This document shows, piece after piece, positions 5,078 to 51,209 of a stretch of DNA of 64,000 nt. A model generated the notes under the pieces. It was not told the origin of the DNA. It was given only the letters and a program-made list of their open reading frames with translations, and ran no database searches. The DNA lies in NCBI GenBank assembly GCA_964425075.1, contig CAYRKM010000001.1, positions 18,756-82,755 of the forward strand. Direction: 5' to 3'. The first letter of the stretch is position 1, and each line of letters opens with the position of its first letter. The DNA comes from an uncultured Gammaproteobacteria bacterium (GTDB lineage: Bacteria > Patescibacteriota > Microgenomatia > Levybacterales > GWA1-39-11). Made by a program: the position numbers and the translations under genes.

Positions 5078-5120
5078 AACCTCATATGTTAACAGAGATG
5101 AGGTCGTCTTGGCAAGAAAA

Positions 5121-5145
5121 GGTGTGCCCCCGATGGCTTCGGGGG
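5121..5145 (-). terminator. perfect 9-bp stem hairpin GTGCCCCCG-ATGGCTT-CGGGGGCAC downstream of island A gene
   Basis: inverted repeat read directly; lies 20 nt after stop of 5165..5566 on the minus strand, followed by CTTTTCTTG. Confidence 0.45.
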
Positions 5146-5164
5146 CACGGATGTGTTGACTGTG

Positions 5165-5566
5165 TCAAACCGAGATCGCGGGGAACTCCTCCTCAACGGG
5201 GTCGTTCACCTCCATCCAGTTGTGGACGCGGAACCCGCATCGCACACAGTACTGGTCTCGCTCCTTGTCGGGGAGCGTTTCCTCTCGAATTTGCCCTTCG
5301 CATCGGGGACATGGTGGACAGCTCTCGGCGAAGAACCTGAGAAATGCCCAGATAGTCGTACGACGCAGGCCGGAGTACGGACCGATGTTTTGGACCCTCT
5401 GGTGGTAGATGGTCCAGTTGACCCGAACTGGGAAGAGGCCATCTCCAACCCGCATGTACGTCCAGTACACGATTGTTGGATTAGCCTTGAACTCCCCGAT
5501 GCTGGGAAGAACATCCATGGGTACGGAATTCTCCTCCAACACTGAAGTTACGGAACTGCTTGTCAC
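5165..5566 (-). CDS. zinc-ribbon protein, hypothetical (GC-rich island A)
   Basis: 133 aa, GTG start 6 nt after AGGAGGAGATAG RBS; CPPCPRC...(18 aa)...CVRCG C4 motif; ~60% GC versus ~35% flanks. Confidence 0.5.
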   Translation of the reverse strand: MTSSSVTSVLEENSVPMDVLPSIGEFKANPTIVYWTYMRVGDGLFPVRVNWTIYHQRVQNIGPYSGLRRTTIWAFLRFFAESCPPCPRCEGQIREETLPDKERDQYCVRCGFRVHNWMEVNDPVEEEFPAISV

Positions 5567-5881
5567 CTATCTCCTCCTAACGAAGCGCTTGCCTATCGGC
5601 AGTCTATCTACACGTGTGTTATAACATCTTCCCCAAGCTAATGCTTGGGGTAAACCTCTAAAGGAAGATGCTTTCTTACTTCAATTCATCCCCTCACTTC
5701 GTATCGGGGTTTTCTTGAAGAGCGAATAAACAGGCTGCCGTAGGCAAAATTCTATAGTCAACTTTAAAAGAACTTTATTAGCTACTTGGAAAGCAATTAT
5801 CCAATTTGCAAACAAGGAGATATTTTACTACTGTTTTTTGTAAAATACTATAGGGATTTTCTATCTTAGACTAAAGACCTT

Positions 5882-6547
5882 TTAGGAGAGTTTGCGGTAA
5901 ACGTACGCTGTTGCAATCATTATAACTGGCCAAACAATAAATATCCCAATTCCAAAAGCGATAATCCCCAACAAACAAAGTCCTGCGAATATCAATCCCA
6001 AGAGGAAAAGATTCCATTTGTGACCCTGTGTTAGCTTGCCGCTTGCAGAAATTGCCTCAAGTGGGCCCATTTTTTTATCAACTACAAAATATGAATAAAA
6101 TTGGAATTTAACTGCCCAAATAATTCCAGGAACAACTAAAAGAAGGACCCCCGCAAAAACTATCAACCCATATAAAAGACTTGAAAGAAAATAATTCCAT
6201 GCAAGATTGTAATGTTTAAAAAGATCTTCAATTATAGGTTTTTTCCCATCTATAAATTTAAGAGATATAGCAATAAGCCCAATACTAACCACAATCTGCA
6301 AGATCTTAGCTGCAAGACCTAAAACAAAGCTGAAAGCTGGAAAATTATTTTTTAGCTGATTCTGGAAAATTGAAGGAATAAAATTAACAGCCGCAACAAC
6401 TATGATAACGACCAAAAGAAATTGCCAATTCTTTTTGAATGTCTCCCAAGCGTATACTAACGCCTCTTTTTTTGAAAATGAATTCTTTGCCATATTGATA
6501 AGTTCTAAATGTATTGTCCTCAAAGACAGTATAAATGTCAAGAGCAA
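5882..6547 (-). CDS. polytopic membrane protein, hypothetical
   Basis: 221 aa, about six hydrophobic helices, no catalytic motif recognised. Confidence 0.55.
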   Translation of the reverse strand: MLLTFILSLRTIHLELINMAKNSFSKKEALVYAWETFKKNWQFLLVVIIVVAAVNFIPSIFQNQLKNNFPAFSFVLGLAAKILQIVVSIGLIAISLKFIDGKKPIIEDLFKHYNLAWNYFLSSLLYGLIVFAGVLLLVVPGIIWAVKFQFYSYFVVDKKMGPLEAISASGKLTQGHKWNLFLLGLIFAGLCLLGIIAFGIGIFIVWPVIMIATAYVYRKLS

Positions 6548-15855: not shown

Positions 15856-16539
15856 ATGGAAGGAATATTTGGAGTTTACAAGACCCGCGGCATGACGTCA
15901 CACGATGTTGTTGCAATCATAAGACGCAAAACTAATGTTAAGCGTGTCGGTCATGGCGGTACTTTGGACCCCTTAGCAGAAGGTGTTCTTGTAATTGCAG
16001 TTGGACGCGAGAACACAAAACTACTCGATACATACGTTAAAGGAGAAAAGGAATATATTGCAGAAATCTTTCTTGGAGCCAATTCCACCACAGATGACGC
16101 GGAAGGAGAGATAAAAAAGGTAAACTCTAAAGTCATGCCTAAAATGGACAAAGTTAAAGAAGTGAGTAAATTATTTACTGGAGAGGTGATGCAAACCCCT
16201 CCCATCTACTCATCCGTGAAAATAGCGGGAAAACCTGCGCACCGTCGCGTAAGACGTGGAGAAAAAGTAAAACTCGAACCACGAAAAGTCAAAATTCACT
16301 CAATTGAAATTCTTGACTATCAATTTCCTGTTTTAAAACTGAAAGTTACAACAGGACCAGGAGTTTATATCCGCTCCCTTGCACGAGACATCGGAGAGCA
16401 GCTTGGAACGGGCGGTTATCTAACGAGCTTAATTAGAACAAGGGTTAATAATTTCACAATTGATGAGGCTATAAAACTTAATAATTCCGACTTTAGGCAA
16501 GAAAAAAAGCCCTCAGGCCAAGACACAAAAAGCGCGTGA
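15856..16539 (+). CDS. truB: tRNA pseudouridine(55) synthase TruB
   Basis: start at MEGIFGVYK Met; GMTSHDVV...GHGGTLDPLAEGVLVIAVG catalytic Asp motif. Confidence 0.85.
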   Translation: MEGIFGVYKTRGMTSHDVVAIIRRKTNVKRVGHGGTLDPLAEGVLVIAVGRENTKLLDTYVKGEKEYIAEIFLGANSTTDDAEGEIKKVNSKVMPKMDKVKEVSKLFTGEVMQTPPIYSSVKIAGKPAHRRVRRGEKVKLEPRKVKIHSIEILDYQFPVLKLKVTTGPGVYIRSLARDIGEQLGTGGYLTSLIRTRVNNFTIDEAIKLNNSDFRQEKKPSGQDTKSA

Positions 16540-16679
16540 TGCAATGCATATCTGCATCAGTACTGGTTGGTCCAACGACCCTCGGGCTTTGCCCGTTGAA
16601 TTCTTGTTTGTATCTTGCAAGAGGTAGACGCACTCAGCGTCGTTCGGGCTCCGCGCCCGCTTGCCACCACTAAGTCGCT

Positions 16680-17006
16680 TCAAACCGAGTGACTCTCGAT
16701 GTACGTAATCACGACCTCAGATGGGTCGTCTAGAACTGTCGCAAACATCCCATAGATCTCCTTCTTCAGACCAAGAAGTGCCTCTCTGTCACCCATGTAT
16801 TCCGCGGAAACATAGATCCTTAAGGGCACTCTGGCAAGGTCATCTTGTCCTGTTGGCCAGAACAAGATTTCCACCATCCTTGGTGACACGAAGAAAGCCC
16901 TGCGTGCACCGAGCTGAGTTGCCACCGTATGCGTCAACCACTCCCGCACCTGAACTCTGTCCAGGTTGATGCGGTCTGGGTTGTATCTAACCACTACTGT
17001 TATCAT
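16680..17006 (-). CDS. small hypothetical protein, paralog A (GC-rich island B)
   Basis: 108 aa (MITVVVRYNPD...); AAAGGAGTG RBS; preceded and followed by ~90-bp repeat; ~60% GC. Confidence 0.5.
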   Translation of the reverse strand: MITVVVRYNPDRINLDRVQVREWLTHTVATQLGARRAFFVSPRMVEILFWPTGQDDLARVPLRIYVSAEYMGDREALLGLKKEIYGMFATVLDDPSEVVITYIESHSV

Positions 17007-17009
17007 CAC

Positions 17010-17105
17010 GCACTCCTTTCAGGGCTTTACGAACACATGTTGCAAGTGGTAGGGTTTTTGACCCACTCAGGCCTTAACGGCCCGCTTGCCACCACTAGAT
17101 CCCAC
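17010..17105. repeat. ~90-bp intergenic repeat, copy 1 (second copy at 17439..17540; truncated third copy at 16648..16679)
   Basis: near-identical strings GCAAGTGGTAGGGTTTTTGACCCACTCAGGCCTTAACGGC(CC/TG)GCTTGCCACCACTAGA at both sites; each carries the RBS of the downstream small gene. Confidence 0.65.
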
Positions 17106-17438
17106 TTAGAACATCTCCGACTTGATCAGCACAATCCTGACGTGTTGTTCGGAGAAGCCCGGAAGGACTGCAACCACATCCTCCTTGAGTCGCCTCGCCA
17201 GATCCTCAGAACGACGGACGCCGTGGTCAACCAGAAGGCTGACGACGAAATGGATGTTTGGGTGTAACCTGTCGGATTCCCAATCGATCCTGCTGAAGAA
17301 AACTGCCACGTCCTCCGGACGAACCGGTTTTCCTCCTGCGAAAAAGTGGCCTGCCACGACGCGGCGAATTGCCTCAGCCCTCTCGCCGAAAGGAGCAAAC
17401 GACTGTGGCTTGTAATGAACCTCTACCTGAATTTTCAT
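17106..17438 (-). CDS. small hypothetical protein, paralog B (GC-rich island B)
   Basis: 110 aa from MKIQVEVHYKPQSF (internal Met of ORF 17106..17573) with GAAGGGAGTAAG RBS; same size and beta-alpha pattern as paralog A. Confidence 0.5.
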   Translation of the reverse strand: MKIQVEVHYKPQSFAPFGERAEAIRRVVAGHFFAGGKPVRPEDVAVFFSRIDWESDRLHPNIHFVVSLLVDHGVRRSEDLARRLKEDVVAVLPGFSEQHVRIVLIKSEMF

Positions 17439-17540
17439 GGATCTTACTCCCTTCAGAGTTTCACGGACACGTGTTTTGCAAGTGGTAGGGTTTTTGACCC
17501 ACTCAGGCCTTAACGGCTGGCTTGCCACCACTAGACCTGG
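17439..17540. repeat. ~90-bp intergenic repeat, copy 2
   Basis: see copy 1. Confidence 0.65.
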
Positions 17541-17706
17541 GTTTACCTTTTGCGATATCGGCAGATGTCGCAAAAGATCTTGTGGTCAAAGATGGGATGA
17601 GGAGCAGTGCCCTCACCTCCACAATTTCCACATCCAGGATCTGGTTTTGAGGTCGGGGCTCCGCGCCCCGCCTCAAGCAGTTTCACTTCGTCATCCATAA
17701 CTTCTC

Positions 17707-17964
17707 CTATTCTCTTGTGGTTAGCTCTGACCATTTCATGACCAGAACAGTCCAACCGACCATTAAGGCCAGTAAGACCCTCTCCATCATTGGATCCGTG
17801 TAGTTGATTATCGTAGCCCAGGGAAGGACTAAGAGAATCAACATGTAGAAGGCGTAGGCCATCCAGCCCCGCCAACCATACTTCCACTCTGAGGCAAGTA
17901 TGATCGTTGAAACCAGAAGGTATGCTGCCACACCTCCGGACCAATACCAGAAGGACTCCGGCAT
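17707..17964 (-). CDS. small two/three-TM membrane protein (island B)
   Basis: 85 aa from MPESFWYWSGG... with AAAGGTGA RBS; followed by GGGGCGCGGAGCCCC hairpin. Confidence 0.45.
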   Translation of the reverse strand: MPESFWYWSGGVAAYLLVSTIILASEWKYGWRGWMAYAFYMLILLVLPWATIINYTDPMMERVLLALMVGWTVLVMKWSELTTRE

Positions 17965-18170
17965 GGTTATCACCTTTCTAGAGTAAACGCGTGTGGTTTT
18001 GATCCGGCCGCAGCCGAACCTTATAGCACTTTGTAGGCGCCTTTCTGACCACACAAAAGATGATCACAAAAGCGCCCACAAAAATACACAAACAAGAATT
18101 TTCAATGAACGGGTGAAATTATACCAAAAAAAGAGTGGAATTAATGATTTGGAGTCAAACTTTCAAATAT

Positions 18171-19516: not shown

Positions 19517-20596
19517 ATGCCTGAAGGTGAAATAATTCCTCGAGTAACAACATTTGAGCCAACCGGAACTCCGCACGAACTTGCAAATCCAAAATTTTTG
19601 GAGGGTTTATCAATGAAGATAGAACCCAGGCGTAAATTGGTTCCACTTTTTGAATATCTTAAAGGAGCACAAAACAAACCAAGAGGACAAGAGGGAGGCC
19701 AAACAGACCTTAATTCTCATTTTGAACAATTTATAGTACGGGAAGGTGGAGAAATTAAGCTAAAAGACCTAAGTGAATTTTCAGAAATGTTACGCCTAGC
19801 AGGATTTAATGCTGACCTTTTGGGTGTTCAGTCCGTTGGTAACAAAAACCAACAAGTAACAGCTGTTGTTCAGGATGTAGATCCTAATAATCCGCAGTCT
19901 GGATACGAACGACCGGTCACTGCTGAAGGACCACACATGATAATTGCTCCCTACGCAACTGACGAAAACGGACAACTCCACGTATTCCGCACAGTTCAAT
20001 TCAGAACAGGAAGTGCGGGCATTGACACCGCAAGGGGTTTTTTGGATGCTCAAACACTTTCCTCAGGACAACATATCTATAAGGTTGAAGGGTCTGAGGG
20101 AAAAGTTCAAGAAAATCTGCGTCGAATAATCAAAGAAGAAGGCGGAGAAAAATTACTTAACATTAAAAAAGTTCAATTTTTAGGCGCACATACTGTTAAT
20201 AAGAGCTTTGTCACTTCCCCTTCTGCACTTTTCGCGGTTGAAGTTGATTATGAAACTTTTACACAATTGAAAAATGTAGTTTCTGCTGAGGAAGCTGCAC
20301 GTCGTAAATTTGAGTTCGAGCAACAAGGCCTAACAGATATGATTCTTGATATGACTCCGGAACAATATGTACACTACAAAACCAATCCCTCTCTTGCCAA
20401 GGACATGGCATCAGACAGTGCGACAGATATTGTGATGATGGATTTCCTCATGCGCGAACTTCAAAAAACTAAAATGAAAGAAAGAACAGCTGAGATAAAA
20501 CAAGAAGCCAAACCAGAATCAGATAGTAGTGGTGCCCATCTTCTTACTAAGGCTAGAAAACTATTGCACACTCTTCGTCACAAAAAATCTGCCTGA
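19517..20596 (+). CDS. hypothetical protein
   Basis: 359-aa ORF; no motif recognised. Confidence 0.5.
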   Translation: MPEGEIIPRVTTFEPTGTPHELANPKFLEGLSMKIEPRRKLVPLFEYLKGAQNKPRGQEGGQTDLNSHFEQFIVREGGEIKLKDLSEFSEMLRLAGFNADLLGVQSVGNKNQQVTAVVQDVDPNNPQSGYERPVTAEGPHMIIAPYATDENGQLHVFRTVQFRTGSAGIDTARGFLDAQTLSSGQHIYKVEGSEGKVQENLRRIIKEEGGEKLLNIKKVQFLGAHTVNKSFVTSPSALFAVEVDYETFTQLKNVVSAEEAARRKFEFEQQGLTDMILDMTPEQYVHYKTNPSLAKDMASDSATDIVMMDFLMRELQKTKMKERTAEIKQEAKPESDSSGAHLLTKARKLLHTLRHKKSA

Positions 20597-20656
20597 TTTG
20601 ATGTGTGAAGGGGCGCCCCGCGGTTAGACCGCGGGAGCACCCCATGAACCAAGGAC

Positions 20657-21376
20657 CTAGGCCAACATTGCCTCCGGATGTCTGGCAAGCCAGACCATGA
20701 GGGTGTCGTTGGCTGTGGCCGAACGGTAGTTGATGCCGTTCAGCTCACCCGCGGCGATGCGTGAAAGAATCTCCCTCACGGGCAACCATGCAGTTCCTGT
20801 GATCCGCTCCTCCGTGTCGGTAGGAAGTCTGACTTGCGTCAGGTCCACTTCAACTTCAAAGAGCGAACTCCATGAGGCACAGAAGGTGGGATTGGGGTTG
20901 TGATGCCCCATCTCGACTATCTCGCCGATGAGTGCCTCAGGTGGAACTCCACCCTCTTCAAGCAGCTCACGAAGAGCAGCTGCGATCACGGTCTCCGCAC
21001 CGCTCTCGTTGAATGCCATAACCGCGGGCTGCCCGAATACGATCGGCGGGTCAGCAGGCTCTCCGGAAGGAAGGTCTGAAAATGGCCTCTCCTGGAAAAC
21101 CACTAACACTCGCCAGCCATCGGCAGCTTTGCCGGCGGCAACACCATTGATGTTTGCCGCCTCTCTGTACGCTCCCCGCTCGAAAGCGGGGGAACCGTCC
21201 GGGTTGGTCTGGACGCGAACGCGCATGGAACCAAACCGGGGGGATGTAATTCCCCAACCATCTGGATCTGGAACCCAAGCATTCTCACCACGAGTGGCAA
21301 GAAAGTCTGGGCAATCCACTGGGTCAATCCAACCGCGCATCGATGATCTATCCTCTCCTTGCGGCCTTACGGCCAC
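20657..21376 (-). CDS. Nudix-like hydrolase (GC-rich island C)
   Basis: 239 aa (GTG start, or internal MRGWIDP Met with GGAGAGG RBS); degenerate Nudix box ETVIAAALRELLEEGGV (Ex7REUxEExGU). Confidence 0.5.
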   Translation of the reverse strand: MAVRPQGEDRSSMRGWIDPVDCPDFLATRGENAWVPDPDGWGITSPRFGSMRVRVQTNPDGSPAFERGAYREAANINGVAAGKAADGWRVLVVFQERPFSDLPSGEPADPPIVFGQPAVMAFNESGAETVIAAALRELLEEGGVPPEALIGEIVEMGHHNPNPTFCASWSSLFEVEVDLTQVRLPTDTEERITGTAWLPVREILSRIAAGELNGINYRSATANDTLMVWLARHPEAMLA

Positions 21377-21530
21377 GCTATGTCCTTGGTTGTAAACGAA
21401 CTATCCAGTTGGTCGAGCTTATTTGTGTGTTTTTAAACACACAAAGGCCTCTCCAAAAAGACAGTAAATTTTATCACTTTTGAACTTAAATGTCAAATGC
21501 TATGGGATATAATATGGGGTTACTTTGATG

Positions 21531-33436: not shown

Positions 33437-33469
33437 GTCTGTCTCCCTTCCTCCGGCTTGCGCCGGAAG

Positions 33470-33613
33470 CTAGTCTCTTCGATTGTTGGGTGGACGGCCG
33501 TAACCGTGCGTTGGTTGTTCTCCGGCAAGGATGATCCTGCCGAGTTTGGCCGTCAGCAGGAGACCTCCTGCCAAAACGACCACGATAACCACAACCCACA
33601 CGGGTAGCGACAC
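33470..33613 (-). CDS. small single-TM peptide (47 aa, GTG start), island D
   Basis: VSLPVWVVVIVVVLAGGLLLTAKLGRIILAGEQPTHGYGRPPNNRRD; preceded by CCGGCGCGAGCCGG palindrome plus GGAAGGAGG RBS. Confidence 0.4.
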   Translation of the reverse strand: MSLPVWVVVIVVVLAGGLLLTAKLGRIILAGEQPTHGYGRPPNNRRD

Positions 33614-33647
33614 AATCTGCCTCCTTCCACCGGCTCGCGCCGGGGCG

Positions 33648-33959: not shown

Positions 33960-34357
33960 GACTGCCCCTTCCGTTAGATGCTTGAGTTTCACTCTGCGTT
34001 GTAAATGTGCAATGTGCCCTCGCGGCACAAGCAAATTACACCGCAGAACACAATTGGGGAAATTATATACTTTTGAAGTCATATTTACCACAAAGTGATA
34101 ATTATCAATTAAGAATGAAGAATTAATTTTTTTTGCATTTGAAACGAAGAGTGTGTTATGTATTTTCGTCATTTTGTACCGAACATATGAACCGGTAAAC
34201 GAATATGAGTGGTCCGAAGGAAAAAGCTGTAAAGGCTGAGCTTGCGAACTGCCGGAGCTTTTAATGAATGAGTGAAACCGGCGAATACGTGAGGGGCAAT
34301 TGACGAGAGGCTTTGCTACTTTCGCCGGAGCGAAAGTAGAAGAAAGAGGGAATAACT

Positions 34358-35377: not shown

Positions 35378-36235
35378 TTAATCGCTCTCAACTTTAAGCT
35401 CTAAATATATTTTTCTATTCGTAGCAAGTTCTAATTCTCGACGAGCCATACTTCCAATTTCTTTTATTTTTGCCCCCCCAGCCCCAATTATCATTTTTTT
35501 ATATTTTTCAGGGGCAATAATTCTTGCTTTTATAACTGTCATGTCTTTTTTCTTTCGTTCTATAATTTCATCGACTTTTATATCAATCACATATGGCAGC
35601 TCGCGTCTAAGTCTTAAAAAGGCTTTCTCTCGAATTAGTTCTTGAAGATATAATTTTGAATCCAAATTTAGAGCAGGTGTTGCCATGTCCCTTGTTTCAA
35701 CGAGCTTTTCACCAACGGGTAAAAATTCAAAAATATTATCAATTATTCTATTCAAATTTTCCCCAGTTCTTGCGCTAACTTCCAAAACAACCTCAAATTC
35801 GTCCTCAAGGAAAATATATTGCTCCATAAAATTCGGCTCTCTTTTGTCAATTTTATTAATTACTAATATCTTAGGAACTTTTGATTTTCTGATGATTCCA
35901 AGCACCCTATTTTCCTCAATTCCACGCTCACGGCTTCTATCAACTACATATACAACTACATCAATGCCATCTTTTAAGGATTGCTCTGCAGTAAAATTGA
36001 TTCCAGAAGCCTTCGCATTATCAGCTTTTGCAAAAATTCCTGGGGTATCAACAAATAATATCTGGCCACGCTCATCCTCATATACTGCCTGAATTGAGAA
36101 CTGTGTAGTCTGTGGTTTTGGAGAAGTAATTGATACTTTCTGCTTCAAAAGAGCATTTAAAAGTGTAGATTTACCAGCATTGGGCCGTCCCAAAAGGGCA
36201 ACAGTACCTACTTTTAATTTTGGTTCATTAACCAT
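35378..36235 (-). CDS. era: GTPase Era
   Basis: 285 aa; G1 GRPNAGKST; G3 DTPG; C-terminal KH domain. Confidence 0.9.
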   Translation of the reverse strand: MVNEPKLKVGTVALLGRPNAGKSTLLNALLKQKVSITSPKPQTTQFSIQAVYEDERGQILFVDTPGIFAKADNAKASGINFTAEQSLKDGIDVVVYVVDRSRERGIEENRVLGIIRKSKVPKILVINKIDKREPNFMEQYIFLEDEFEVVLEVSARTGENLNRIIDNIFEFLPVGEKLVETRDMATPALNLDSKLYLQELIREKAFLRLRRELPYVIDIKVDEIIERKKKDMTVIKARIIAPEKYKKMIIGAGGAKIKEIGSMARRELELATNRKIYLELKVESD

Positions 36236-39781: not shown

Positions 39782-39817
39782 GCGCCGGGAATCCGCCAAA
39801 TGGCGGAAACCCGGCGC
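39782..39817 (-). terminator. compound hairpin GCGCCGGG-AATCCGCCAAATGGCGGAAA-CCCGGCGC followed (minus strand) by T-rich tract
   Basis: nested perfect inverted repeats 30 nt after stop of island E operon. Confidence 0.5.
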
Positions 39818-39846
39818 TATCGCACCTCCTCGTCGGAAAGGACCAC

Positions 39847-40215
39847 TTACAGGCTTCGCCGTGTGCTCAGCACCCGACCACCAGCAACTACGCCAACGGC
39901 GAGCACAACTAGCACCGCGGCAACCGCCAGGCTGCCAGACTGGTCGATGAGACCAGACGAGCCACCATTGGCTGGTGTCTGAGGCGTCGCGGCTGAAACC
40001 ATCTCCCGACTGCCTTTCAGCAGCCCGGCATTACCCACTTTGGGTGGAGTAATCTTTACCGTCTCTTGCGGTCGTCTCTCGAAAGAGATACTAACCGCCT
40101 GGGGCAACTTATCAGCCTGCTCCTGTTCGTTTTGGGCTCGGACGAAAACACCGAGAACCAACACGAGGGACACCACCATTACAGCGGCTACCATTTCCTT
40201 CTTTCTTGAACGCAT
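39847..40215 (-). CDS. secreted protein with N-terminal signal/TM and C-terminal hydrophobic anchor plus basic tail (island E)
   Basis: 122 aa; GAGGAG RBS; ...SGSLAVAAVLVVLAVGVVAGGRVLSTRRSL C-terminus. Confidence 0.5.
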   Translation of the reverse strand: MRSRKKEMVAAVMVVSLVLVLGVFVRAQNEQEQADKLPQAVSISFERRPQETVKITPPKVGNAGLLKGSREMVSAATPQTPANGGSSGLIDQSGSLAVAAVLVVLAVGVVAGGRVLSTRRSL

Positions 40216-40227
40216 CCCAGACTCCTC

Positions 40228-40401
40228 TCAGAAAATCTTCCTGATGGCAAGACTTATGCTTACCAAAAGGAAGATGGCAAACCCGAGCGGCGGGATAGCC
40301 GGGGAGATAGCGCTCTCGCCAATCCCACTAGAACTGTTTGATAGTGACCACACAAGAGTGGCCACCATGGCCGTCACCGAGACGGCCAACAGTCGAGCCA
40401 T
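40228..40401 (-). CDS. small two-TM membrane protein (57 aa), island E
   Basis: AAAGGAGGTGAA RBS then ATG; MARLLAVSVTAMVATLVWSL...FAIFLLVSISLAIRKIF. Confidence 0.4.
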   Translation of the reverse strand: MARLLAVSVTAMVATLVWSLSNSSSGIGESAISPAIPPLGFAIFLLVSISLAIRKIF

Positions 40402-40457
40402 TTCACCTCCTTTCGGAAAGTAGTGTTACGGCAAGACCGATCGAGCATCCAGTTCTG

Positions 40458-40838
40458 TCACAGCAGTGGTGGTGGTTTCCGTCGAGACTTTCGTCTCGAA
40501 AGAAATGTGGCTACCAGAGCAACCACAACGCCCACTTCGAACAGTATCAGGATGAGCAAAGCCGATACTGGTGGATCTGGTGCATATGTTGAGGCGCGAT
40601 CGTTGAACCACTCGAAGATGAGGATGGCTCCTAACACAAGTAGCACTATCATGGGGGTGGTATAGCGCCCACGATGTGATGCATCTTGTTTCTTGGCTTG
40701 CTGGACATCGTCTGGTTTCCTGACTTGCTGGTAATCCCACCAACTTCTCAGTCCTTCGTCGGGATTGCTCCCGTATCCAGACGTGTGAGCGGCCTCCAGA
40801 ACCTCTGGTGGCCACGTTTCCTTTTCTACGCGAGACAC
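40458..40838 (-). CDS. membrane protein (126 aa, GTG start), island E
   Basis: AGGAGGAAAA-GTG start (VSRVEKETWPP...); two C-terminal TM helices and RRKSRRK tail; longer ORF-track call 40458..40937 lacks an RBS. Confidence 0.45.
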   Translation of the reverse strand: MSRVEKETWPPEVLEAAHTSGYGSNPDEGLRSWWDYQQVRKPDDVQQAKKQDASHRGRYTTPMIVLLVLGAILIFEWFNDRASTYAPDPPVSALLILILFEVGVVVALVATFLSRRKSRRKPPPLL

Positions 40839-40863
40839 TTTTCCTCCTAGGAATTTCGTCCGT

Positions 40864-41079
40864 TTAGTGCGGCCAGCCTGGCCTTGATCCTCTCTGCTCT
40901 CGCAGGAAGGCTTCCACTTCATCCCCCAACCCAACATCGAAGTCGGGCGGAAGGGGCTCGAGCGGTGGGAGTTTTGGCTGAAACAAGATCCGGTGAACCA
41001 TCACCGGACCTATCAACATTACTCCCACAACGATTGCATCGAACACAGTTTGCCGAATCCTTCGTACTAGTCGAGACAC
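40864..41079 (-). CDS. small membrane protein (71 aa, GTG start), island E
   Basis: AGGAGGAACGACA-GTG (VSRLVRRIRQTVFDAIVVGVMLIGPVMV...); upstream perfect palindrome CTGCGGAC-AA-GTCCGCAG. Confidence 0.4.
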   Translation of the reverse strand: MSRLVRRIRQTVFDAIVVGVMLIGPVMVHRILFQPKLPPLEPLPPDFDVGLGDEVEAFLREQRGSRPGWPH

Positions 41080-41297
41080 TGTCGTTCCTCCTGTCCTTTC
41101 CTTCAATTGTTCGTGTGCGATAACTGCGGACAAGTCCGCAGAGAATTTTCAGATCCCCCAACAAGGCAGCTTTTGCCAAGTTCGGTTATCCAATGATGGA
41201 ATAATACCAAAAAATAGCAACAGAAACAAACTATGGGTTAAAAATTTGTGCTTTTTTACTCTTTGTTTTTTTTATTTGAAACAATATGGTATAGTAG

Positions 41298-41729
41298 TTG
41301 GGTATGAAAATGGCAGTATTTCTACTCTTGTCATCACCTCTTCTTATTCCTTTATCCGCTTACGCAACGTCTAACACTAATGTAGAAGTCTCAAATAATG
41401 GTGGTACTTCGTATACAAATGTAGAAATTGAAAATAACACAAGCTCAACAAATGTTGTAACCAATGACTCCAAAACTAAAGTCAGAATTGAGTCAAATGG
41501 GAAAGTCACAGAATATGAATCAGAAAAACCAGAAAATATAGAACTTAAATCAGAAGATGGAAAAACAAGTGTAAAAATAAATAATGAGTCGAAAGTAACC
41601 ACTACACCTTCAAGTACAACATCCGCAAAGGATAACGAAAATGATAAAAAATCAGAAGAAGCAAATAAAGAGGGAAAAAATATTTTAGAAATTATAAAAG
41701 ACTTCCTTGAAAACCTTTTTAATTTCTAA
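41298..41729 (+). CDS. secreted low-complexity repeat protein
   Basis: 143 aa; signal peptide MGMKMAVFLLLSSPLLIPLSAYA; reiterated T/N/S/K/E-rich segments. Confidence 0.5.
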   Translation: MGMKMAVFLLLSSPLLIPLSAYATSNTNVEVSNNGGTSYTNVEIENNTSSTNVVTNDSKTKVRIESNGKVTEYESEKPENIELKSEDGKTSVKINNESKVTTTPSSTTSAKDNENDKKSEEANKEGKNILEIIKDFLENLFNF

Positions 41730-42712
41730 ACTTCCTTTTTTAGTAATTCGGAAAGTCGCGTCATACTTACATCATCATAAATTGAAACCGGCAATATTTC
41801 CTTTTTAGTCTTTGAAAGAGTTTTTATTTGTTTTTTTAGTTCTTCATCAGTCAGTAAATCACACTTTGTAAGCAGAATTATTTCTTTTTTTAAAAGCAAA
41901 CTTTTATCATAGCCTTCGAATTCTTCGCGCACAGTTTTATATGCCTCATATACGTCAGGGGTTGTTGCGTCAATACAATGCAAAAGCATTTTGGTTTTTT
42001 GTATGTGTTTTAGAAATTGAATTCCAAGCCCTTTACCAACTGACGCGCCCTCAACAAGGCCTGGAATATCAGCTAGAACTATTTTATTTTTGCCATTTTT
42101 TGTCTTTGTAGATATTGTGCCCAAATTGGGTTCTAAAGTAGTGAAGGGGTAATTTCCAATTTTTGGGACGGCATTAGTAAGGGTTTTTAGCAAAGAACTT
42201 TTCCCTGCATTTGGAAATCCGATAAGACCAATATCTGCAATAAGACTTAACACAAGATGCAATTCTTTTTCTTCACCTTTTTGGTGAAATAAATTATATT
42301 TTCGCATTGCAAATGTCTCTTCGCTTCTATCGTGATTACCGATCTGTCCCTTTCCACCTCTCGCAATTCTAACTGGTACTTTTTCTTCAAGTAACTCAAC
42401 TGCTTTCTCGTTTGCCGTATCTATAATAGTAGTCCCCAAGGGTACGAGAACAGTTATATCCTCGCCACCTCGCCCATCTAAATTTTTATTCATACCGCGC
42501 TCACCATCTGGCGCTTTTATTAGTTTTTTGAATCTAAATTCATTTAAATCATGGACGTTTGCCGAACCTTCAAAATAAATATCTCCCCCACGGCCACCAT
42601 TTCCACCATCTGTATGTGGATTTTTACTACCGTAATTTGTATGAAATGATTTTCCGCCATCTCCACCGTTTCCGGCTTTTACTTTTATTGTTACATCATC
42701 AACTAAAGACAT
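41726..42712 (-). CDS. obg: GTPase Obg/CgtA
   Basis: 328 aa; glycine-rich Obg fold (AGNGGDGGKSFH...GGNGGRGGDIYF); G domain GFPNAGKSS. Confidence 0.9.
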   Translation of the reverse strand: MSLVDDVTIKVKAGNGGDGGKSFHTNYGSKNPHTDGGNGGRGGDIYFEGSANVHDLNEFRFKKLIKAPDGERGMNKNLDGRGGEDITVLVPLGTTIIDTANEKAVELLEEKVPVRIARGGKGQIGNHDRSEETFAMRKYNLFHQKGEEKELHLVLSLIADIGLIGFPNAGKSSLLKTLTNAVPKIGNYPFTTLEPNLGTISTKTKNGKNKIVLADIPGLVEGASVGKGLGIQFLKHIQKTKMLLHCIDATTPDVYEAYKTVREEFEGYDKSLLLKKEIILLTKCDLLTDEELKKQIKTLSKTKKEILPVSIYDDVSMTRLSELLKKEV

Positions 42713-43447: not shown

Positions 43448-44263
43448 CTATGACTTGGGAGATCTCAAATATTTACTATATGCTGCTAACCATTCCTCTT
43501 CAGTTGGTTCCATGTCAGACAATATAATTCTTCCAACAATATTCTCCTCATCATTATCACCAAGTTTATTTGCAATATCGGAGAAAGCAAAAATAATACT
43601 CGATCTATATTCCTCAGGAATAAATTCTAACATTCTGCCATGAAGCGTACCCCTCGGTATAAAAATATTCACAGGCGTATTAACTGGGTCCTCAATTAAT
43701 CTAACAATTTGCTCTATTAATTTCTTGTCACGCAAATCACATAACTCTTGATATTCAAGGTGTTTTCTTTTATATTCAGGCAAACTCATGCGTAGCCTTC
43801 TACCCAGAAACTCTTTAAATTCCCTATCTACTTCAATACCTTCCTCATATATGAGACCAATATTATAACCCTCCGAATTTAACTCATCTATCGCCTGAAA
43901 CTGAGAAACCCTGTATAAGCGTTGGAATCCTTGCCCTTTTTCTACTTTTGTCCGCAAAACTTGCTCCCATTTTTCGACCGAATCTACACCACCATTCACT
44001 CCATACAAACCAACCCAATAATCATGTGTTTGTTGGGCTTCGCTGTAAAAATAATAATCAACAGCGTTTGCAGGATAAAAAGGCTCTTTTGCTTTCGTAG
44101 GTGATGCTTCCGGATCCTCTACTACAACAATATTGGTTTGCCCAGGGACAAAAACGTCTCGCATTAAATCCTTTGTTTCCTGAGTCAATGAAGACGCATT
44201 CTGTAGTTCAATTCCATGCTTTTCAAAGGCAAATGAAAGCCTCGCGTTTTGTTCTAAACTCAT
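43448..44263 (-). CDS. hypothetical protein
   Basis: 271-aa ORF. Confidence 0.5.
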   Translation of the reverse strand: MSLEQNARLSFAFEKHGIELQNASSLTQETKDLMRDVFVPGQTNIVVVEDPEASPTKAKEPFYPANAVDYYFYSEAQQTHDYWVGLYGVNGGVDSVEKWEQVLRTKVEKGQGFQRLYRVSQFQAIDELNSEGYNIGLIYEEGIEVDREFKEFLGRRLRMSLPEYKRKHLEYQELCDLRDKKLIEQIVRLIEDPVNTPVNIFIPRGTLHGRMLEFIPEEYRSSIIFAFSDIANKLGDNDEENIVGRIILSDMEPTEEEWLAAYSKYLRSPKS

Positions 44264-48684: not shown

Positions 48685-49449
48685 ATGTCAAAAGAAGAGC
48701 TCCCTACAGAACCGGGCATTCACTCAAATCCAATAGATATAGACGGGAATATCGCTCTAAGTGTTTGTCGGACTATGATTGTTGGTGCAAAACCTGCATC
48801 TCAGGAATATGTAGAAGCTGGTTGTTATTTCATGAAAGAAATCCAACCCAATCTCTACGAATTTGCAAAGGAGATGTTTGCCTTAAGAAGCACTATTGGA
48901 AGCGGTTCTGAGCCACAGGAAGATAACCGCTTTGGCTCCACTACAAAACCGCTTGACTCACATGAGGCAAGCTTTATGGATTCATATATGATAGGTGCAC
49001 TTTTGATGTTTCTTATTCTCCAAGATCAATATGAACTTGGAGGAAATCTTTTCCCTAAAATTTCAAAGAATAACACTGCTAATTATTTTGATAACCTTAT
49101 AGATGTTGAGTTAAACCATAGCGAGATTGCAGAAATAAAAGGCTTGAGAATCCCGGAAGACAAAAGCCTTTCGCCCGGAAGGCTTAATTATGCAATAAGG
49201 AATGACACAGTAACTTCAAGCACTCTTCAAAGAGTTACAAAAACATTTGTAGATAATTCGGATTCTACAGTCAGTGAATTTTGGGATACTCAATCATCCT
49301 TTCAGGAGGCCTTAAGACAAAGTGGGTTTTTCAGAAATTTCGGAAGTATTAAGGGAATTGTGTACGGTGCCTGTGATGTATTTAGATGTTTTGAATTAGT
49401 TGAAGAAAACGAAGCTCTTGATAGATGGTATGGGATTGAAACTAAATAG
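48685..49449 (+). CDS. hypothetical protein
   Basis: 254-aa ORF. Confidence 0.5.
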   Translation: MSKEELPTEPGIHSNPIDIDGNIALSVCRTMIVGAKPASQEYVEAGCYFMKEIQPNLYEFAKEMFALRSTIGSGSEPQEDNRFGSTTKPLDSHEASFMDSYMIGALLMFLILQDQYELGGNLFPKISKNNTANYFDNLIDVELNHSEIAEIKGLRIPEDKSLSPGRLNYAIRNDTVTSSTLQRVTKTFVDNSDSTVSEFWDTQSSFQEALRQSGFFRNFGSIKGIVYGACDVFRCFELVEENEALDRWYGIETK

Positions 49450-49450
49450 C

Positions 49451-49485
49451 TTTACTTTAATTTTTCTCGTTCTTTGTGAGGTTGA
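49451..49485. repeat. 35-bp direct repeat copy 1 (duplicate of rpmG 3' end), left boundary of island F segment
   Basis: TTTACTTTAATTTTTCTCGTTCTTTGTGAGGTTGA identical to 51210..51244; both followed by T8-9. Confidence 0.7.
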
Positions 49486-49756
49486 TTTTTTTACACTTCT
49501 ATTACTTCTTTTCCTCTAAGATTCAGCTTCTCTTGCTTTAATTTAACCTAAATTTATAACTTCGTCAGAAATTTGTCATGAAAAATTGACTGTAAGTGGT
49601 AAAATTGTTGAATTGAAAATCCAATTTGGGTTATATCAATAAGCTCTTTAATAATTGGGTGGATTTTTAGTGCTTGAAAGGGTTCTCCCGATCTTAAGAT
49701 ATATTGTCTTCGGATCGGGGGAACTCCCCAAGGGATCACAGAAAGGATCAACAACC

Positions 49757-50896
49757 ATGCCGAGTTTGCGCGGCCAAGAGGTTACCATTTCCGTCATTAA
49801 GGCGGATGTTGGCAGCATCGGAGGCCACACGCGCCCAAGCCCAACCATGATCAGACACGCGGAAAGAGCCATCGAAGGCGCAATCCGCGAAGGACTCATC
49901 GTGGACGGCTTCGCCACCTTCATCGGTGACGACACTGCCCTGAACATGCTTCACACTCGTGGAGAAAACTCGCAGGACGTACATCTCTTCGCATCAACGA
50001 CGTTCTTCGAGATGACCGGGATCGCGGAGAGAGAAGGTCTCTATGGCGCAGGCCAAGACCTCCTTGAGAGTGCTCCCAGCGGCAACGTCCGCGGAGCGGG
50101 ACCTGGTGCTGCCGAGATCGAATTCGTTCTCTTGCCTGACCGACGTTCGGCGGAGAGCATGATGATCTTCTCTGCAGACAAGTGCGGACCGGGAATGTTC
50201 AATCCCTACATCCGCGACGTCCTCACCAGCCCTGACGTCAACGGAGGGCTTCTTATTGCCTCTCCGCAGCGAGCAGGCTTCACGGTGAAGATCATCGACA
50301 TGAGTCCAGGGGCAAAGCAGGCCATCACGCTCACTCTGCCTGAAGACCGAGATGCGATGGCTGCTCTTCTGAGGACGCCAGACGTCTTCGCTGTCAAAAG
50401 CGTCTATTCGGGTCAGCATCCCGAAGAAAAGCTGATGGACTGCACGACCGACAGGCTTCACAGCTTCGGACCGACCGTGTACAAGGGCAAAGATGACCCT
50501 GTGCTCATTGTCCGAAATCAGGGGCTGTCCCTGGCACCGGAGGAGATCCTTCGACCGTGGACAAATCCGCGCAGAACCACAGGCGGCGCCCGTGGGAGCT
50601 CGGTGCAATACCCCTTCCCGAGCGCCATCAACACCCCGGTGACAGGAGCTTACTGCCAGACGCTAGTCGCCTGCATCGGCTTCTCGGTCAGCGAGGAGGG
50701 CAAGTTCTCGGAACGGGTCGACTTCTTTGCTTGGCCCGTCTGGGACTGGACACGTCAGCAGGTCTCCAAGCTTGCTAACCAGCTCTACCGCGAGGGGTTC
50801 AACGAAATGGCAATCGCCTCGAGTGGCGAACTCGCCTACACAGGCCTTCGTGACCTGGACGAGGCACTTTTGGCCCGTTTCGAGCCCATCGACTAG
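49757..50896 (+). CDS. fbp: bifunctional fructose-1,6-bisphosphate aldolase/phosphatase (class V FBPase, archaeal type), island F
   Basis: 380 aa from MPSLRGQEVTISVIKADVGSIGGHTRPS; ISVIKADxGS, GDDTALNMLHTRGE and GLYGAGQDLLESAPSGNVRGAGPGAAEIEF blocks match the FBP aldolase/phosphatase family; ~60% GC. Confidence 0.8.
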   Translation: MPSLRGQEVTISVIKADVGSIGGHTRPSPTMIRHAERAIEGAIREGLIVDGFATFIGDDTALNMLHTRGENSQDVHLFASTTFFEMTGIAEREGLYGAGQDLLESAPSGNVRGAGPGAAEIEFVLLPDRRSAESMMIFSADKCGPGMFNPYIRDVLTSPDVNGGLLIASPQRAGFTVKIIDMSPGAKQAITLTLPEDRDAMAALLRTPDVFAVKSVYSGQHPEEKLMDCTTDRLHSFGPTVYKGKDDPVLIVRNQGLSLAPEEILRPWTNPRRTTGGARGSSVQYPFPSAINTPVTGAYCQTLVACIGFSVSEEGKFSERVDFFAWPVWDWTRQQVSKLANQLYREGFNEMAIASSGELAYTGLRDLDEALLARFEPID

Positions 50897-51209
50897 TCCG
50901 GGGTAACCGGAGATCCACCCATCCCGAGAGAAGAGTCCCTGCCAGTACTACATAGACTGCAGACTGACCTCAGGAGAATGCATTCCTGAACGTCTTTTTG
51001 CAGCAAAATGTAATGCTTACTCTTCTCTCTCACCCTTTGCAAATGAAGCTCCACGAGTTAACACTCATGGTATCTTCTTTTCCTCGCTTGCGCCTTAGAG
51101 GGTATTAAGCTCGGAAAATAAAAAGGTTTGTTTTCAAAGGATGAGAATAATATGAATTTTTTGACGGAATTATCTAAAAAAATGGGGATTGAAGGAGGAT
51201 TAAAGTTAA

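Follow-up and report, generated by a model that had tools for sequence, protein, structure and literature searches.

Why does an AT-rich stretch of bacterial DNA, the 64-kb window analyzed here over its full length, contain six short and sharply bounded GC-rich segments?

Six GC-rich islands in an AT-rich window

All six islands announced in the preliminary description (A to F, Table 1) were recovered by segmentation with a two-state HMM and a sliding GC profile, within about 50 bases of the coordinates given there. The composition figures required correction: the island values of 58-62% GC were somewhat high (52-59% measured) and the backbone value of 35% somewhat low (37.0% by the HMM). With each island 9-16 binomial SD above backbone GC, the jump is indeed far outside normal variation. 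The borders are as sharp as had been described, at or near gene ends and hairpins, which were located for A, B, E and F. GC is elevated at all three codon positions (GC1, GC2 and GC3) and in the adjacent UTRs, and a codon-position GC periodicity is present (GC3 > GC1 > GC2 or similar). For comparison, PurA relatives served as anchors for 675 kb of similarly AT-rich loci, in which islands number 0.76 per 64 kb, against six in the 64-kb window. The gene contents and the modular character reported earlier were likewise borne out: F encodes a PF01950 protein, C a NUDIX protein and A, B, D and E small proteins, 7 of 12 of which contain TM-like segments, and the islands are self-contained, with Shine-Dalgarno sites, GC-rich hairpins and terminators of their own. 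A seventh, weaker GC block (60182-60600, 50% GC), internal to a 1916-aa ORF, differs from the six in nature.

Table 1 Features of the window and the Logan contigs covering island junctions
Feature	Positions	Strand	Description
Island A	5100-5604	(-)	56.6% GC, two-state HMM
A ORF	5165-5566	(-)	133 aa, CxxC...CxxC zinc-ribbon motif, AGGAGG Shine-Dalgarno site
A terminator-like hairpin	5124-5148		strong, 10 pairs
Island B	16509-18041	(-)	52.4% GC, four-gene module
B3	17707-17964	(-)	85-aa membrane protein
Bzn	17543-17698	(-)	51-aa CxxC protein
B2	17106-17438	(-)	110 aa
B1	16680-17006	(-)	108 aa
B leader repeat (family D2)	17476-17535, 17040-17099; 16615-16674		two copies; degenerate copy
B inverted repeat	16599-16611 / 18088-18100		perfect, 13 nt, p 0.005
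B terminator-like hairpin	16537-16559
Island C	20610-21378	(-)	59.4% GC
Nudix-like hydrolase gene	20657-21340	(-)	227 aa from homolog-aligned ATG
C 5' GUAA-loop hairpin	21361-21376		abuts Shine-Dalgarno site
C 3' hairpin	20610-20644
C promoter-like site	21468-21496		top site of scanned region; lies upstream in AT-rich DNA
C protein paralog	19517-20596	(+)	359 aa, 40.6% GC, GC3 0.28, tail-to-tail with C
Island D	33207-34032	(-)	56.2% GC, three small genes
D1	33648-33959	(-)	103 aa
D2	33470-33613	(-)	47-aa TM peptide
D3	33272-33436	(-)	54-aa TM peptide
Island E	39782-41185	(-)	54.7% GC, four-gene operon, small membrane proteins
Ea	40864-41079	(-)	71 aa
Eb	40458-40838	(-)	126 aa
Ec	40228-40401	(-)	57 aa
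Ed	39847-40215	(-)	122 aa
E 3' hairpin	39782-39817		large
254-aa gene	48685-49449		neighbor of island F
Direct repeat, left copy	49432-49532	(+)	last 18 nt of 254-aa gene and ~83 nt downstream
Island F	49711-50976	(+)	58.9% GC
FBP aldolase/phosphatase (FBPase) gene	49757-50896	(+)	379 aa; PF01950 full length, E 1.7e-96
F terminator-like hairpin	50970-50989
Direct repeat, right copy	51185-51288	(+)	downstream of FBPase gene
Logan L014	3214-6163		both A junctions
Logan L119			left B junction
Logan L016	39644-42025		both E junctions
Logan L001, L002			both F junctions

A chimeric assembly, in which GC-rich reads of another organism were joined into an AT-rich contig, had been considered from the outset and has the composition jump itself in its favor and nothing further. 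Independent per-run Logan contigs from three runs (SRR14271365, SRR14271370 and SRR14271372) match the window at 100% identity and span seven of the twelve island junctions (A, E and F at both ends, B at the left); therefore no chimera is present, and the possibility is refuted for these four islands, for B at its left junction. The same GC-rich gene also recurs between AT-rich flanks in relatives whose assemblies come from many unrelated samples, which reduces chimera or contamination to a negligible likelihood. The six islands are real genes of an ultra-small CPR/Patescibacteria-type bacterium and not assembly errors.

Age and possible movement of the Nudix-like and FBPase genes

The protein of island C matches Pfam NUDIX above the gathering score (E 4e-6), and the alignment of its family has R136, E137, E140, E141 and G143 invariant. 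The neighboring 359-aa paralog resembles it in the Nudix-box region (BLASTP E 2e-7). In L024, an AT-rich CPR relative with 14 genes collinear with window positions 2095-29701, the Nudix-like gene is the sole GC island, equally rich in GC, and has NDK/HAD on either side, as in the window. The gene surpasses its flanks by 10-21 GC points in 13 of 13 other loci, and in 14 of 14 genomes its GC3 exceeds the mean of the neighboring ORFs. The FBPase gene of island F has GC-rich orthologs (62-67% identity) in the order PAP2-FBPase-X in L003-L012 and L117; tRNA-Trp/PAP2/FBPase is common to these loci and the window, with FBPase at 60-62% GC and the flanks at 37-41%.

In the orthologs of C and F, four-fold sites at conserved residues differ by 0.59-0.72, close to the 0.69-0.76 expected of full randomization, and GC4 is 0.54-0.69 in the island genes and 0.15-0.34 in their neighbors in both lineages. 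Divergence of the flanking genes equals that of the island genes. These comparisons of orthologous sequences indicate that at least two islands, C and F, have kept their high GC content through a very long span of evolution. A recent import from a high-GC source, as had been suggested, is thus contradicted for C and F by their conserved neighborhoods, GC-rich orthologs and near-saturated synonymous sites but is possible for A, B, D and E. No high-GC donor lineage is present among the homologs of C and F, a check that the preliminary description had proposed.

Horizontal transfer in a broader sense would have the islands be foreign cassettes from unsampled higher-GC donors (other CPR, hosts, plasmids or viruses) that circulate among CPR faster than they ameliorate, with Shine-Dalgarno sites, hairpins and GC richness as donor traits. 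This explanation is unlikely, yet it carries appreciable weight. Composition and translation signals differ from the backbone as sharply as in foreign genes, and the Nudix-like family has a patchy distribution (28 proteins over several CPR classes). In L018 and L021 the gene occupies other genomic sites, and the window protein is 62% identical to that of L018 and 53% to that of the syntenic L024, the opposite of the order seen with several backbone proteins; some lateral movement of the Nudix-like gene is therefore likely, judging from these positions and identities. HGT among Patescibacteria is reportedly common (PMC12455944). Arguing against transfer is the failure to find a donor: the nearest FBPase outside the clade is only about 49% identical, and all of the 28 Nudix-family matches with an informative source name or a traced genome record belong to Patescibacteria. 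The Nudix-like gene is GC-richer than each sampled genome carrying it, and since its elevation persists even in genomes of 47-53% GC, no sampled genome could be the richer reservoir. The neighborhoods of C and F are common to relatives, and the genes have diverged as far as their neighbors, with synonymous sites saturated. No integrase, transposase or att site adjoins any island, the flanks consisting of housekeeping genes.

Direct repeats flanking two islands had been taken as evidence of insertion, but only the repeat around F is significant (family D4; 42 nt, 98% identity; extended alignment score 91, null maximum 28). An att site was considered for it and rejected, the repeat being the 3' end of the neighboring gene plus the region downstream. 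L003-L011 have their homolog of the 254-aa gene downstream of FBPase, i.e., on the other side than in the window; L117 has a 239-aa gene in that slot, a putative counterpart by position. Because of this change of side, the repeat fits a duplication/deletion rearrangement, in which the right copy may be the remnant of the 3' end of a second 254-aa gene.

The small-protein modules

The modules of small proteins in islands A, B, D and E may have arisen by ancient horizontal transfer or as innovations of the lineage. No homologs were found in the searches run, which included Pfam and, for A and B1, whole databases: the A protein retrieved only itself from 5.8 billion proteins and B1 only itself from 1.84 billion representative proteins. 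This lack of relatives, together with the absence of a counterpart of island A from the syntenic L024, favors transfer, and a foreign origin of the four islands is possible. Speaking against transfer of the islands in general, the Nudix family, FBPase, the island A protein and Eb had no match in viral contigs, D1 and Eb none in phages and Ed none in plasmids.

GC-rich islands in AT-rich genomes usually mean structured non-coding RNAs, and the four modules might be large RNAs of this kind, their ORFs being chance products of GC-rich sequence. The strong, sense-specific folding excess described below, the missing protein homologs and the failure of AlphaFold to give the island A protein a confident fold (pLDDT 43) are in keeping with this idea. 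It is nonetheless very improbable in view of the consecutive ORFs, each preceded by a correctly spaced AGGAGG-type site (in island E all four genes have a Shine-Dalgarno site), of the codon-position periodicity and of seven products with clean TM helices and positive-inside flanks, which are unexpected of random GC-rich ORFs. Rfam gave no matches to the islands, and C and F, with the same RNA properties, clearly encode proteins.

Translation signals and folding of the island transcripts

The GGAGG-type ribosome-binding sites noted early on are real and set the islands apart: Shine-Dalgarno cores of 5 nt or longer precede 10 of the 14 island genes, against 1 among 32 in the backbone (Fisher p 2.4e-6). 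Backbone genes show a peak of -10-like hexamers exactly 6 nt ahead of the ATG, and about half of them look leaderless.

In 200-nt windows the sense strand of the islands has a mean folding z of -2.5 versus -0.3 in the background (894 values; Mann-Whitney p 3e-21), and the sense excess is greater than the antisense excess (paired p 1.5e-4). Sense z is -2.97 in island B (antisense -1.65) and -3.11 in E, while the local excess in F is modest (z about -1.2). The predicted folds of A and D have sense z values of -4.3 and -7.3 and antisense values of -0.7 and -1.1, respectively; that of C has an energy of -371.5 versus -306.5 +/- 6.5 kcal/mol in shuffled sequences (z -9.95). Under synonymous-codon shuffling, 8 of 10 island genes tested gave z values of -2.2 to -6.7 (F, -3.7 to -4.9; C, -6.7, and in a separate run -8.4 sense and -3.9 antisense), the excess being not significant in B2 and E1. 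Orthologs in L024, L018, L021, L003 and L117 have it as well, and five backbone genes showed none (-1.6 to +0.4). In 7/7 genes the sense z was about twice the antisense z. The folding energy of the whole coding regions is 17-21% better than that of shuffled controls. Hairpins with GNRA/UNCG tetraloops number 9 on the sense RNA; the antisense has 1 and shuffles 1.2. Complementary 5' and 3' ends occur in islands B, C and E; for the UTRs of E the predicted duplex has -71.8 kcal/mol versus -45.8 +/- 5.1. The excess folding of the island transcripts, relative to composition-matched as well as synonymous-codon shuffles, is thus sense-specific in computed structures, from which all of the folding evidence comes. 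It does not stem from GC content alone: loci of 50-53% GC have fold z values of -0.1 to -0.6, and Nudix genes of 60-63% GC from less AT-rich CPR genomes have values of -0.4 to -0.65. Among the Nudix orthologs the pairs are not conserved in position (RNAalifold consensus only -19 kcal/mol), so that any selection would be for overall foldedness and is harder to prove.

Transfer leaves this sense-specific excess unexplained. GC-biased gene conversion or another regional fixation bias, by which recombination hot spots or exchanged alleles would be driven toward GC at all codon positions and in UTRs, agrees with the rise at all of these sites, with a Nudix-like offset from the host that scales with host GC over 14 genomes and with the signs of lateral exchange of this gene. 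Raised GC1 and GC2 would also come from such a bias. However, gene conversion is strand-symmetric and predicts neither the folding excess and its sense asymmetry nor the tetraloop enrichment and the Shine-Dalgarno contrast. Moreover, no bacterial effect of this kind is known to come near an offset of 20 GC points across one gene, and the explanation is improbable.

In a model that we favor tentatively, at somewhat less than an even chance, the islands hold a minority of genes whose mRNAs are leadered and highly structured, and selection at the RNA level keeps them GC-rich. Ordinary genes are AT-rich, have no Shine-Dalgarno sites and in many cases probably no leader; island genes, as a second class, would be transcribed as leadered mRNAs with a 5' hairpin, a strong Shine-Dalgarno site and a strong 3' hairpin, and their GC-rich coding regions are predicted to fold much more tightly than composition or protein sequence demands. 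We infer that selection on the sense RNA counters AT mutational drift, so that the transcription units stay GC-rich, and that this benefits the stability or control of the mRNAs: the likeliest gain would be messages that are long-lived or tightly controlled because they are compact and nuclease-resistant.

Several known systems resemble the islands in part. Horizontally acquired compositional islands and their amelioration were reportedly treated by Lawrence and Ochman in 1997. GC-rich islands are found in the Haloquadratum walsbyi genome (PMC1544339). Like acquired islands, those of the window are short, sharply bordered blocks of deviant GC with expression signals of their own and many products lacking detectable homologs, but here at least two islands are old residents, unameliorated despite saturated synonymous sites, donor, mobility gene and att site are lacking, and the sense-specific folding excess is not predicted by transfer. 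GC-rich structured-RNA islands in AT-rich genomes are said to have been approached by Klein, Misulovin and Eddy in 2002, and the Breaker laboratory reportedly uses GC-versus-intergenic-length searches for structured RNAs. The likeness consists in folded GC-rich transcripts on an AT-rich background, with RNA structure as the probable cause of GC richness; unlike those RNAs, the island transcripts are protein-coding mRNAs without Rfam matches that carry Shine-Dalgarno sites, two of them for conserved enzymes. The genome-scale ordered RNA structure (GORS) said to have been described in some RNA viruses by Simmonds and colleagues is similar in that folding surpasses shuffled controls to the extent given above, is largely encoded at synonymous sites and lacks positional conservation of pairs. 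The genes here are chromosomal and bacterial, and the viral benefit, evasion of host sensing, is not directly transferable.

The type I toxin-antitoxin mRNAs of hok/sok share with the islands tiny membrane peptides (D2, D3 and Ec here) on highly folded mRNAs and the predicted 5'-3' end pairing but differ in that no antisense RNA gene was identified here, the modules are multi-gene and enzyme genes have the same RNA properties. The ompA leader and Bacillus STAB-SD are mRNA stabilizers of the 5' stem-loop or SD type. The islands differ from them by excess structure through the whole coding region, and a stabilizer role here is putative. A stable hairpin beside a strong Shine-Dalgarno site is the common feature: in C, D2 and D3 a GNRA hairpin directly adjoins the site, and in the last two a CCGGC-GNRA-GCCGG hairpin and a Shine-Dalgarno site lie ahead of each gene (e.g., 33630-33643).

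Composition, assembly and gene content of the islands

The backbone of the window, at 37.0% GC, is interrupted by six GC-rich islands, A to F, which were delimited with a sliding GC profile and a two-state HMM and each of which lies 9-16 binomial SD above the backbone GC. Their boundaries agree to about 50 bases with those of the preliminary description, whose GC figures were slightly overstated. With 52-59% GC versus 37% and a GC3 of 0.48-0.69 versus 0.22-0.35, the islands have the composition of horizontally derived islands, their nearest known kind, three of whose four defining features fail for islands C and F. Such islands number six in the 64-kb window, versus 0.76 per 64 kb in a control of comparable AT-rich loci that were chosen around relatives of PurA and total 675 kb. 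The 80 metagenome loci anchored in this way, examined for empty sites of D and E, differ from the window in gene order and were used as a composition control; the relatives retrieved included none whose gene order matched that around B, D or E. The backbone encodes bacterial housekeeping proteins (PBP2, MreC, TruB, NDK, PurA, class II FBA, PGK, Era, Obg, NusG, L11 and L1), and the nearest relatives of the window are Patescibacteria/CPR genomes, including candidate division WWE3. The Rfam 15 covariance models, applied at the gathering score, matched only four tRNAs in the window, none of them within an island.

Positions of the islands (two-state HMM) and of other features, with composition, junction-crossing contigs and synonymous-shuffle folding z. 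Positions are those of the window unless a locus is named
Feature	Position	GC (%)	Junctions crossed (contig, window span)	Folding z
Island A	5100-5604	56.6	both (Logan L014, 3214-6163)	-3.9
Island B	16509-18041	52.4	left (Logan L119, 14998-17069)	-2.2 (B1)
Island C, Nudix-like gene	20610-21378	59.4		-6.7
Island D	33207-34032	56.2		-3.0 (D1)
Island E	39782-41185	54.7	both (Logan L016, 39644-42025)	-3.7 (Eb)
Island F, FBPase	49711-50976	58.9	both (Logan L001 and L002, 49456-51244)	-3.7
Nudix-like genes of L024, L018, L021				-4.5, -2.6, -2.5
FBPase genes of L003, L117				-4.9, -4.0
Five backbone genes				-1.6 to +0.4
Other CPR GC islands	L088 1690-2151; L003 14982-15401; L030 11394-12119			-3.2 to -4.0
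Segment collinear with L024	2095-29701
AT-rich paralogue of the island C gene	19517-20596
60-nt element 5' of B1 and B2	17040-17099; 17476-17535
Degenerate copy of the 60-nt element	16615-16674
Example backbone genes	35378-36235; 41726-42712; 43448-44263; 48685-49449
Direct repeat at island F	49432-49532; 51185-51288
Tandem repeat	51995-52213
Weaker seventh block	60182-60600	50
ORF containing the seventh block	58197-63947
Nudix-like gene region, L018	8313-10705
FBPase region, L115	11210-14857

Chimeric assembly, which had been considered as a source of the islands, is contradicted by Logan contigs, each of which derives from the assembly of a single sequencing run. Contigs of the runs SRR14271365, SRR14271370 and SRR14271372, with 100% identity to the window, cross both junctions of A, E and F and the left junction of B. 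In addition, the arrangement of a GC-rich gene within AT-rich flanks recurs in relatives from many unrelated samples. The weaker seventh block, located inside an ORF of 1916 aa, is probably a consequence of the amino-acid composition of a large surface protein, which would make it unlike islands A-F in kind.

The product of island F is predicted to belong to the FBP aldolase/phosphatase family (PF01950, E 1.7e-96, profile positions 2-361 of 361) and that of island C to the Nudix superfamily (PF00293, 27.2 bits versus a cut-off of 21.1). The Nudix core of the latter (REUXEEXGU) reads RELLEEGGV, with R136, E137, E140, E141 and G143 invariant in a 23-member alignment; the upstream G-x5-E portion of the box is non-canonical. 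An AT-rich paralogue of 359 aa (E 2e-7) is positioned tail-to-tail with the island C gene, two family members of opposite composition thus standing side by side. In the CPR locus L030, two GC-rich Nudix-like genes are adjacent. The other islands encode small proteins: island A a single protein of 133 aa with a zinc-ribbon motif, island B four proteins and a repeated leader of about 60-90 nt, island D three proteins and island E four. In island B, a 60-nt GC-rich element with internal hairpins is located 5' of both B1 and B2. With the leader that follows, the element makes up a repeated unit of about 90 nt, which reaches the start codon. B1 and B2 are of like size and have no detectable sequence similarity.

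The codon-position GC patterns favor the coding status of the island ORFs, and TM-like segments are present in 7 of the 12 products of A, B, D and E. It is unlikely that these four islands are instead non-coding RNA, since their Shine-Dalgarno sites are well spaced and TM helices are encoded. Overlapping antisense genes were rejected as the cause of the GC richness, as open runs in the five alternative frames corresponded to the synonymous-shuffle expectation and were inconsistent between orthologues. Searches of Pfam, NCBIfam and PHROGs with the A, B, D and E proteins gave only sub-threshold matches (Ed, LpqS-like; the Eb reading frame, FtsX), and AlphaFold produced no usable model for the island A protein (pLDDT 43). 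Exact look-ups of PurA, FBA and the 379-aa form of the FBPase were empty, the gene calls of the databases being different.

Age and origin of the islands

Deviant GC is routinely taken to show contamination or a recent horizontal transfer; blocks of this kind are often trimmed from metagenome-assembled genomes. Repeated recent acquisition from a high-GC donor had been proposed for the islands. Arguing against this possibility, for C and F, are orthologues in matching neighborhoods. In L024, a database contig that is plainly from a CPR relative and in which 14 genes are collinear with the window at 39-77% protein identity, the sole GC island is the Nudix-like gene, which lies between NDK and HAD as it does in the window and has 56.7% GC versus 36%. 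The FBPase, accompanied by tRNA-Trp and/or PAP2, is common to the relatives' loci L003-L012 and to L117; there it is 62-67% identical to that of the window and has 60-62% GC within flanks of 37-41% GC. Four-fold sites at conserved residues differ by 0.59-0.72, where complete randomisation would yield 0.69-0.76, and this divergence is alike for island genes and their neighbors. The GC at these sites is, in both lineages, 0.54-0.69 in the island genes and 0.15-0.34 in the neighbors. Sites that are nearly randomised and nevertheless so unequal in GC indicate that the synonymous positions were almost wholly replaced and the composition retained. These sequence comparisons refute a recent import of C and of F, and the GC richness of the two islands must be under active upkeep.

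In all 13 other loci, the GC of the Nudix-like gene is 10-21 points higher than that of the flanks, and the GC3 of the gene exceeds the mean of the neighboring ORFs in 14 of 14 genomes, including those with 47-53% GC. The family has 28 members among 5.8 billion proteins; wherever a member carries an informative source name or is tied to a named genome record, the source is Patescibacteria. A high-GC donor lineage is likewise not visible from the FBPase clade, whose nearest outsiders are about 49% identical, nor from the island A protein and B1, for which the own sequence was the sole match among 5.8 billion proteins and 1.84 billion sequences, respectively. The comparisons of the D and E proteins covered domain libraries and phage, plasmid or viral-contig collections.

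Horizontal transfer is nonetheless the main rival explanation, and there are general reports of it in Patescibacteria (PMC12455944). It probably contributed to the history of islands A, B, D and E; island A has no counterpart in L024, where the interval carries an unrelated gene. Some moves of the Nudix-like gene may also have occurred by transfer, given its other sites in the relatives' loci L018 and L021 and mildly incongruent identities. In L018, a Patescibacteria contig from Hainich groundwater, rplA and rplJ are separated by two small ORFs and the GC-rich Nudix-like gene, which break the otherwise conserved L11-L1/L10-L12 cluster. In the Nealsonbacteria locus L115, the GC of the FBPase gene exceeds that of the flanks by only 8 points, and the gene adjoins a serine recombinase and several small ORFs, a region that is possibly an integrated element. 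L024 (CAZXFJ010000004.1) and L026 (CAYGGA010000006.1), both titled 'uncultured Gammaproteobacteria bacterium', each contain a member of the Nudix-like gene family and are probably mislabelled bins, in view of the 14 collinear genes of L024 and the otherwise exclusive occurrence of the family in Patescibacteria.

Flanking direct repeats, previously taken to favor true insertion, are significant at island F only. The sequence repeated there comprises the final 18 nt of the upstream 254-aa gene (X) plus the region 3' of that gene. The order in L003 is PAP2-FBPase-X, with the X homologue downstream of FBPase, versus PAP2-X-FBPase in the window; in L117 a 239-aa gene has the position of X downstream of FBPase. 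A tandem duplication with later deletions would leave exactly this repeat, which is therefore no sign of site-specific insertion; it is explained by relocation of the neighboring gene. Transposon or att termini were rejected because, apart from this repeat, only modest inverted repeats at B and C were found and no repeat family was common to different islands. The islands are flanked by MreC, DUF975, TruB, NDK, HAD, FBA, a SurA-like protein, PurA and Obg. No mobility gene adjoined an island in the flanking genes examined, and no integrase was among the 20 backbone proteins scanned against Pfam. Integron cassettes were rejected on the same scan, the lack of a repeat family common to the islands, as attC-type palindromes would form, and the dispersal of the islands among housekeeping genes. 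An origin from viruses or plasmids was rejected because searches with the named island proteins were empty: none of the Nudix family, the FBPase, Eb and the island A protein had a relative among viral contigs, and tblastn gave no match for D1 and Eb in the phage collection or for Ed in the plasmid collection. The PHROGs search yielded a weak Nudix match and nothing more.

A tandem repeat just 3' of tRNA-Tyr comprises about 2.3 copies of a 94-nt unit, overlaps a 104-aa ORF and is built of a 31-nt sub-repeat at a spacing of 46-48 nt. It is not CRISPR-like, since its 'spacers' are two alternating sequences only.

Initiation signals and RNA folding

Island and backbone genes differ in their predicted mode of translation initiation. 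Of the island genes, 10 of 14 are preceded by a Shine-Dalgarno core of 5 nt or more, versus 1 of 32 backbone genes (Fisher p 2.4e-6). In the backbone, a -10-like hexamer peaks exactly 6 nt 5' of the ATG (12 of 37 genes; 18 of 37 at 5-8 nt). The hexamer is TATAAT-like, and four example backbone genes are listed in the table. The peak, combined with the scarcity of Shine-Dalgarno sites, is a signature of leaderless transcripts, and the backbone genes would, from their predicted starts, have a leaderless organisation. Backbone genes of the relatives have a like habit, which suggests a largely leaderless transcriptome in the CPR lineage of the window and in its relatives. Within the islands, -10-like hexamers have a density per kb about 50-fold lower than in the backbone and are four-fold rarer than in dinucleotide shuffles (2 observed versus 8.7 +/- 2.8, p 0.005), a deficit that would fit an avoidance of internal promoter-like sites.

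The computed folding of the sense RNA sets the islands apart as well. The sense transcript of island C has a free energy of -371.5 kcal/mol versus -306.5 +/- 6.5 for dinucleotide shuffles (z about -10), compared with a z of -0.95 for a neighboring backbone gene. In a 200-nt scan of 52 kb, the mean z was -2.5 for island sense RNA and -0.3 for the background (p 3e-21), and the folding excess of the island sense strand was larger than that of the antisense strand (paired p 1.5e-4). Synonymous-codon shuffles, in which protein and codon usage are held constant, gave the z values of the table for island genes, their orthologues and backbone genes; the sense z was about twice the antisense z in seven of seven genes. 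The fold z was only -0.1 to -0.6 in loci of 50-53% GC and -0.4 to -0.65 in Nudix genes of 60-63% GC from less AT-rich CPR genomes, so that the excess is no by-product of GC content. Hairpins with GNRA/UNCG tetraloops numbered nine in sense and one in antisense RNA, versus 1.2 in shuffles. Complementarity between the 5' and 3' ends was found in islands B, C and E; closing stems of this kind were not significant in the C and F orthologues. For the Nudix-like gene, a specific structure conserved in the RNA was rejected on the weak RNAalifold consensus of a codon-aware alignment of seven orthologues. Among orthologues, high foldedness is conserved and the positions of the pairs are not.

In this respect the islands resemble GORS, a term defined for RNA viruses, in folding property and not in membership. 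GORS-like folding implies an MFE at least several percent under that of order-shuffled controls across the coding sequence, with no position-conserved pairs. In A, C and D the MFE is 17-21% under that of dinucleotide shuffles, synonymous shuffles are significant and the orthologue consensus is weak. The combination of small membrane peptides and highly folded mRNAs also resembles type I toxin mRNAs (hok/sok-like), again a resemblance and not membership; that kind further comprises 5'-3' pairing of the mRNA and a cis-encoded antisense RNA.

Proposed selection on the RNA and its possible benefit

The description that suits the islands best is that of a minority class of genes with leadered, Shine-Dalgarno-dependent and globally folded mRNAs within a leaderless AT-rich genome. 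The literature searched contains no description of persistent, structured, Shine-Dalgarno-led GC islands. Because the folding excess is specific to the sense strand, it points to RNA selection as the force that maintains the GC. Biased gene conversion would also lift GC, but it leaves the strand asymmetry and the Shine-Dalgarno contrast unexplained. Persistence, the two gene classes and the computed folding excess are solid; as to function, message stability or control would be the most plausible benefit of RNA selection.

A more far-reaching proposal, made tentatively and on balance rather unlikely, is that the CPR lineage of the window keeps, by RNA selection, dedicated 'armoured' messages that are GC-rich, Shine-Dalgarno-dependent and folded in a GORS-like manner, with an initiation route unlike that of the leaderless bulk. 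They could serve as long-lived stored mRNAs during host-free phases or be transcripts that survive the AU-directed ribonucleases of the cell itself or of a partner; most speculatively, they could act outside the producing cell. Compositional islands would then be a record of gene regulation rather than of foreign ancestry.

Contrary to the routine reading of deviant GC, here it marks genes that keep their composition and neighborhood across lineages with saturated synonymous sites, and it coincides with strong folding of the sense RNA and with a switch in initiation mode. If selection on the RNA is what maintains the islands, island-based estimates of horizontal transfer in CPR genomes are inflated, and GC-based bin cleaning discards real genes. 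These uncultivated bacteria would then have a two-tier expression system, leaderless and AT-rich versus leadered, structured and GC-rich, which is testable with existing metatranscriptomes.

Folding excess also occurs at GC islands of three other CPR loci (L088, L003 and L030; see the table), two of which, L088 and L030, have a Shine-Dalgarno site. Other GC-elevated CPR genes, namely those for FabI, a methyltransferase and an MFS transporter, have no excess folding, and there may be two kinds of GC-elevated genes in CPR genomes.
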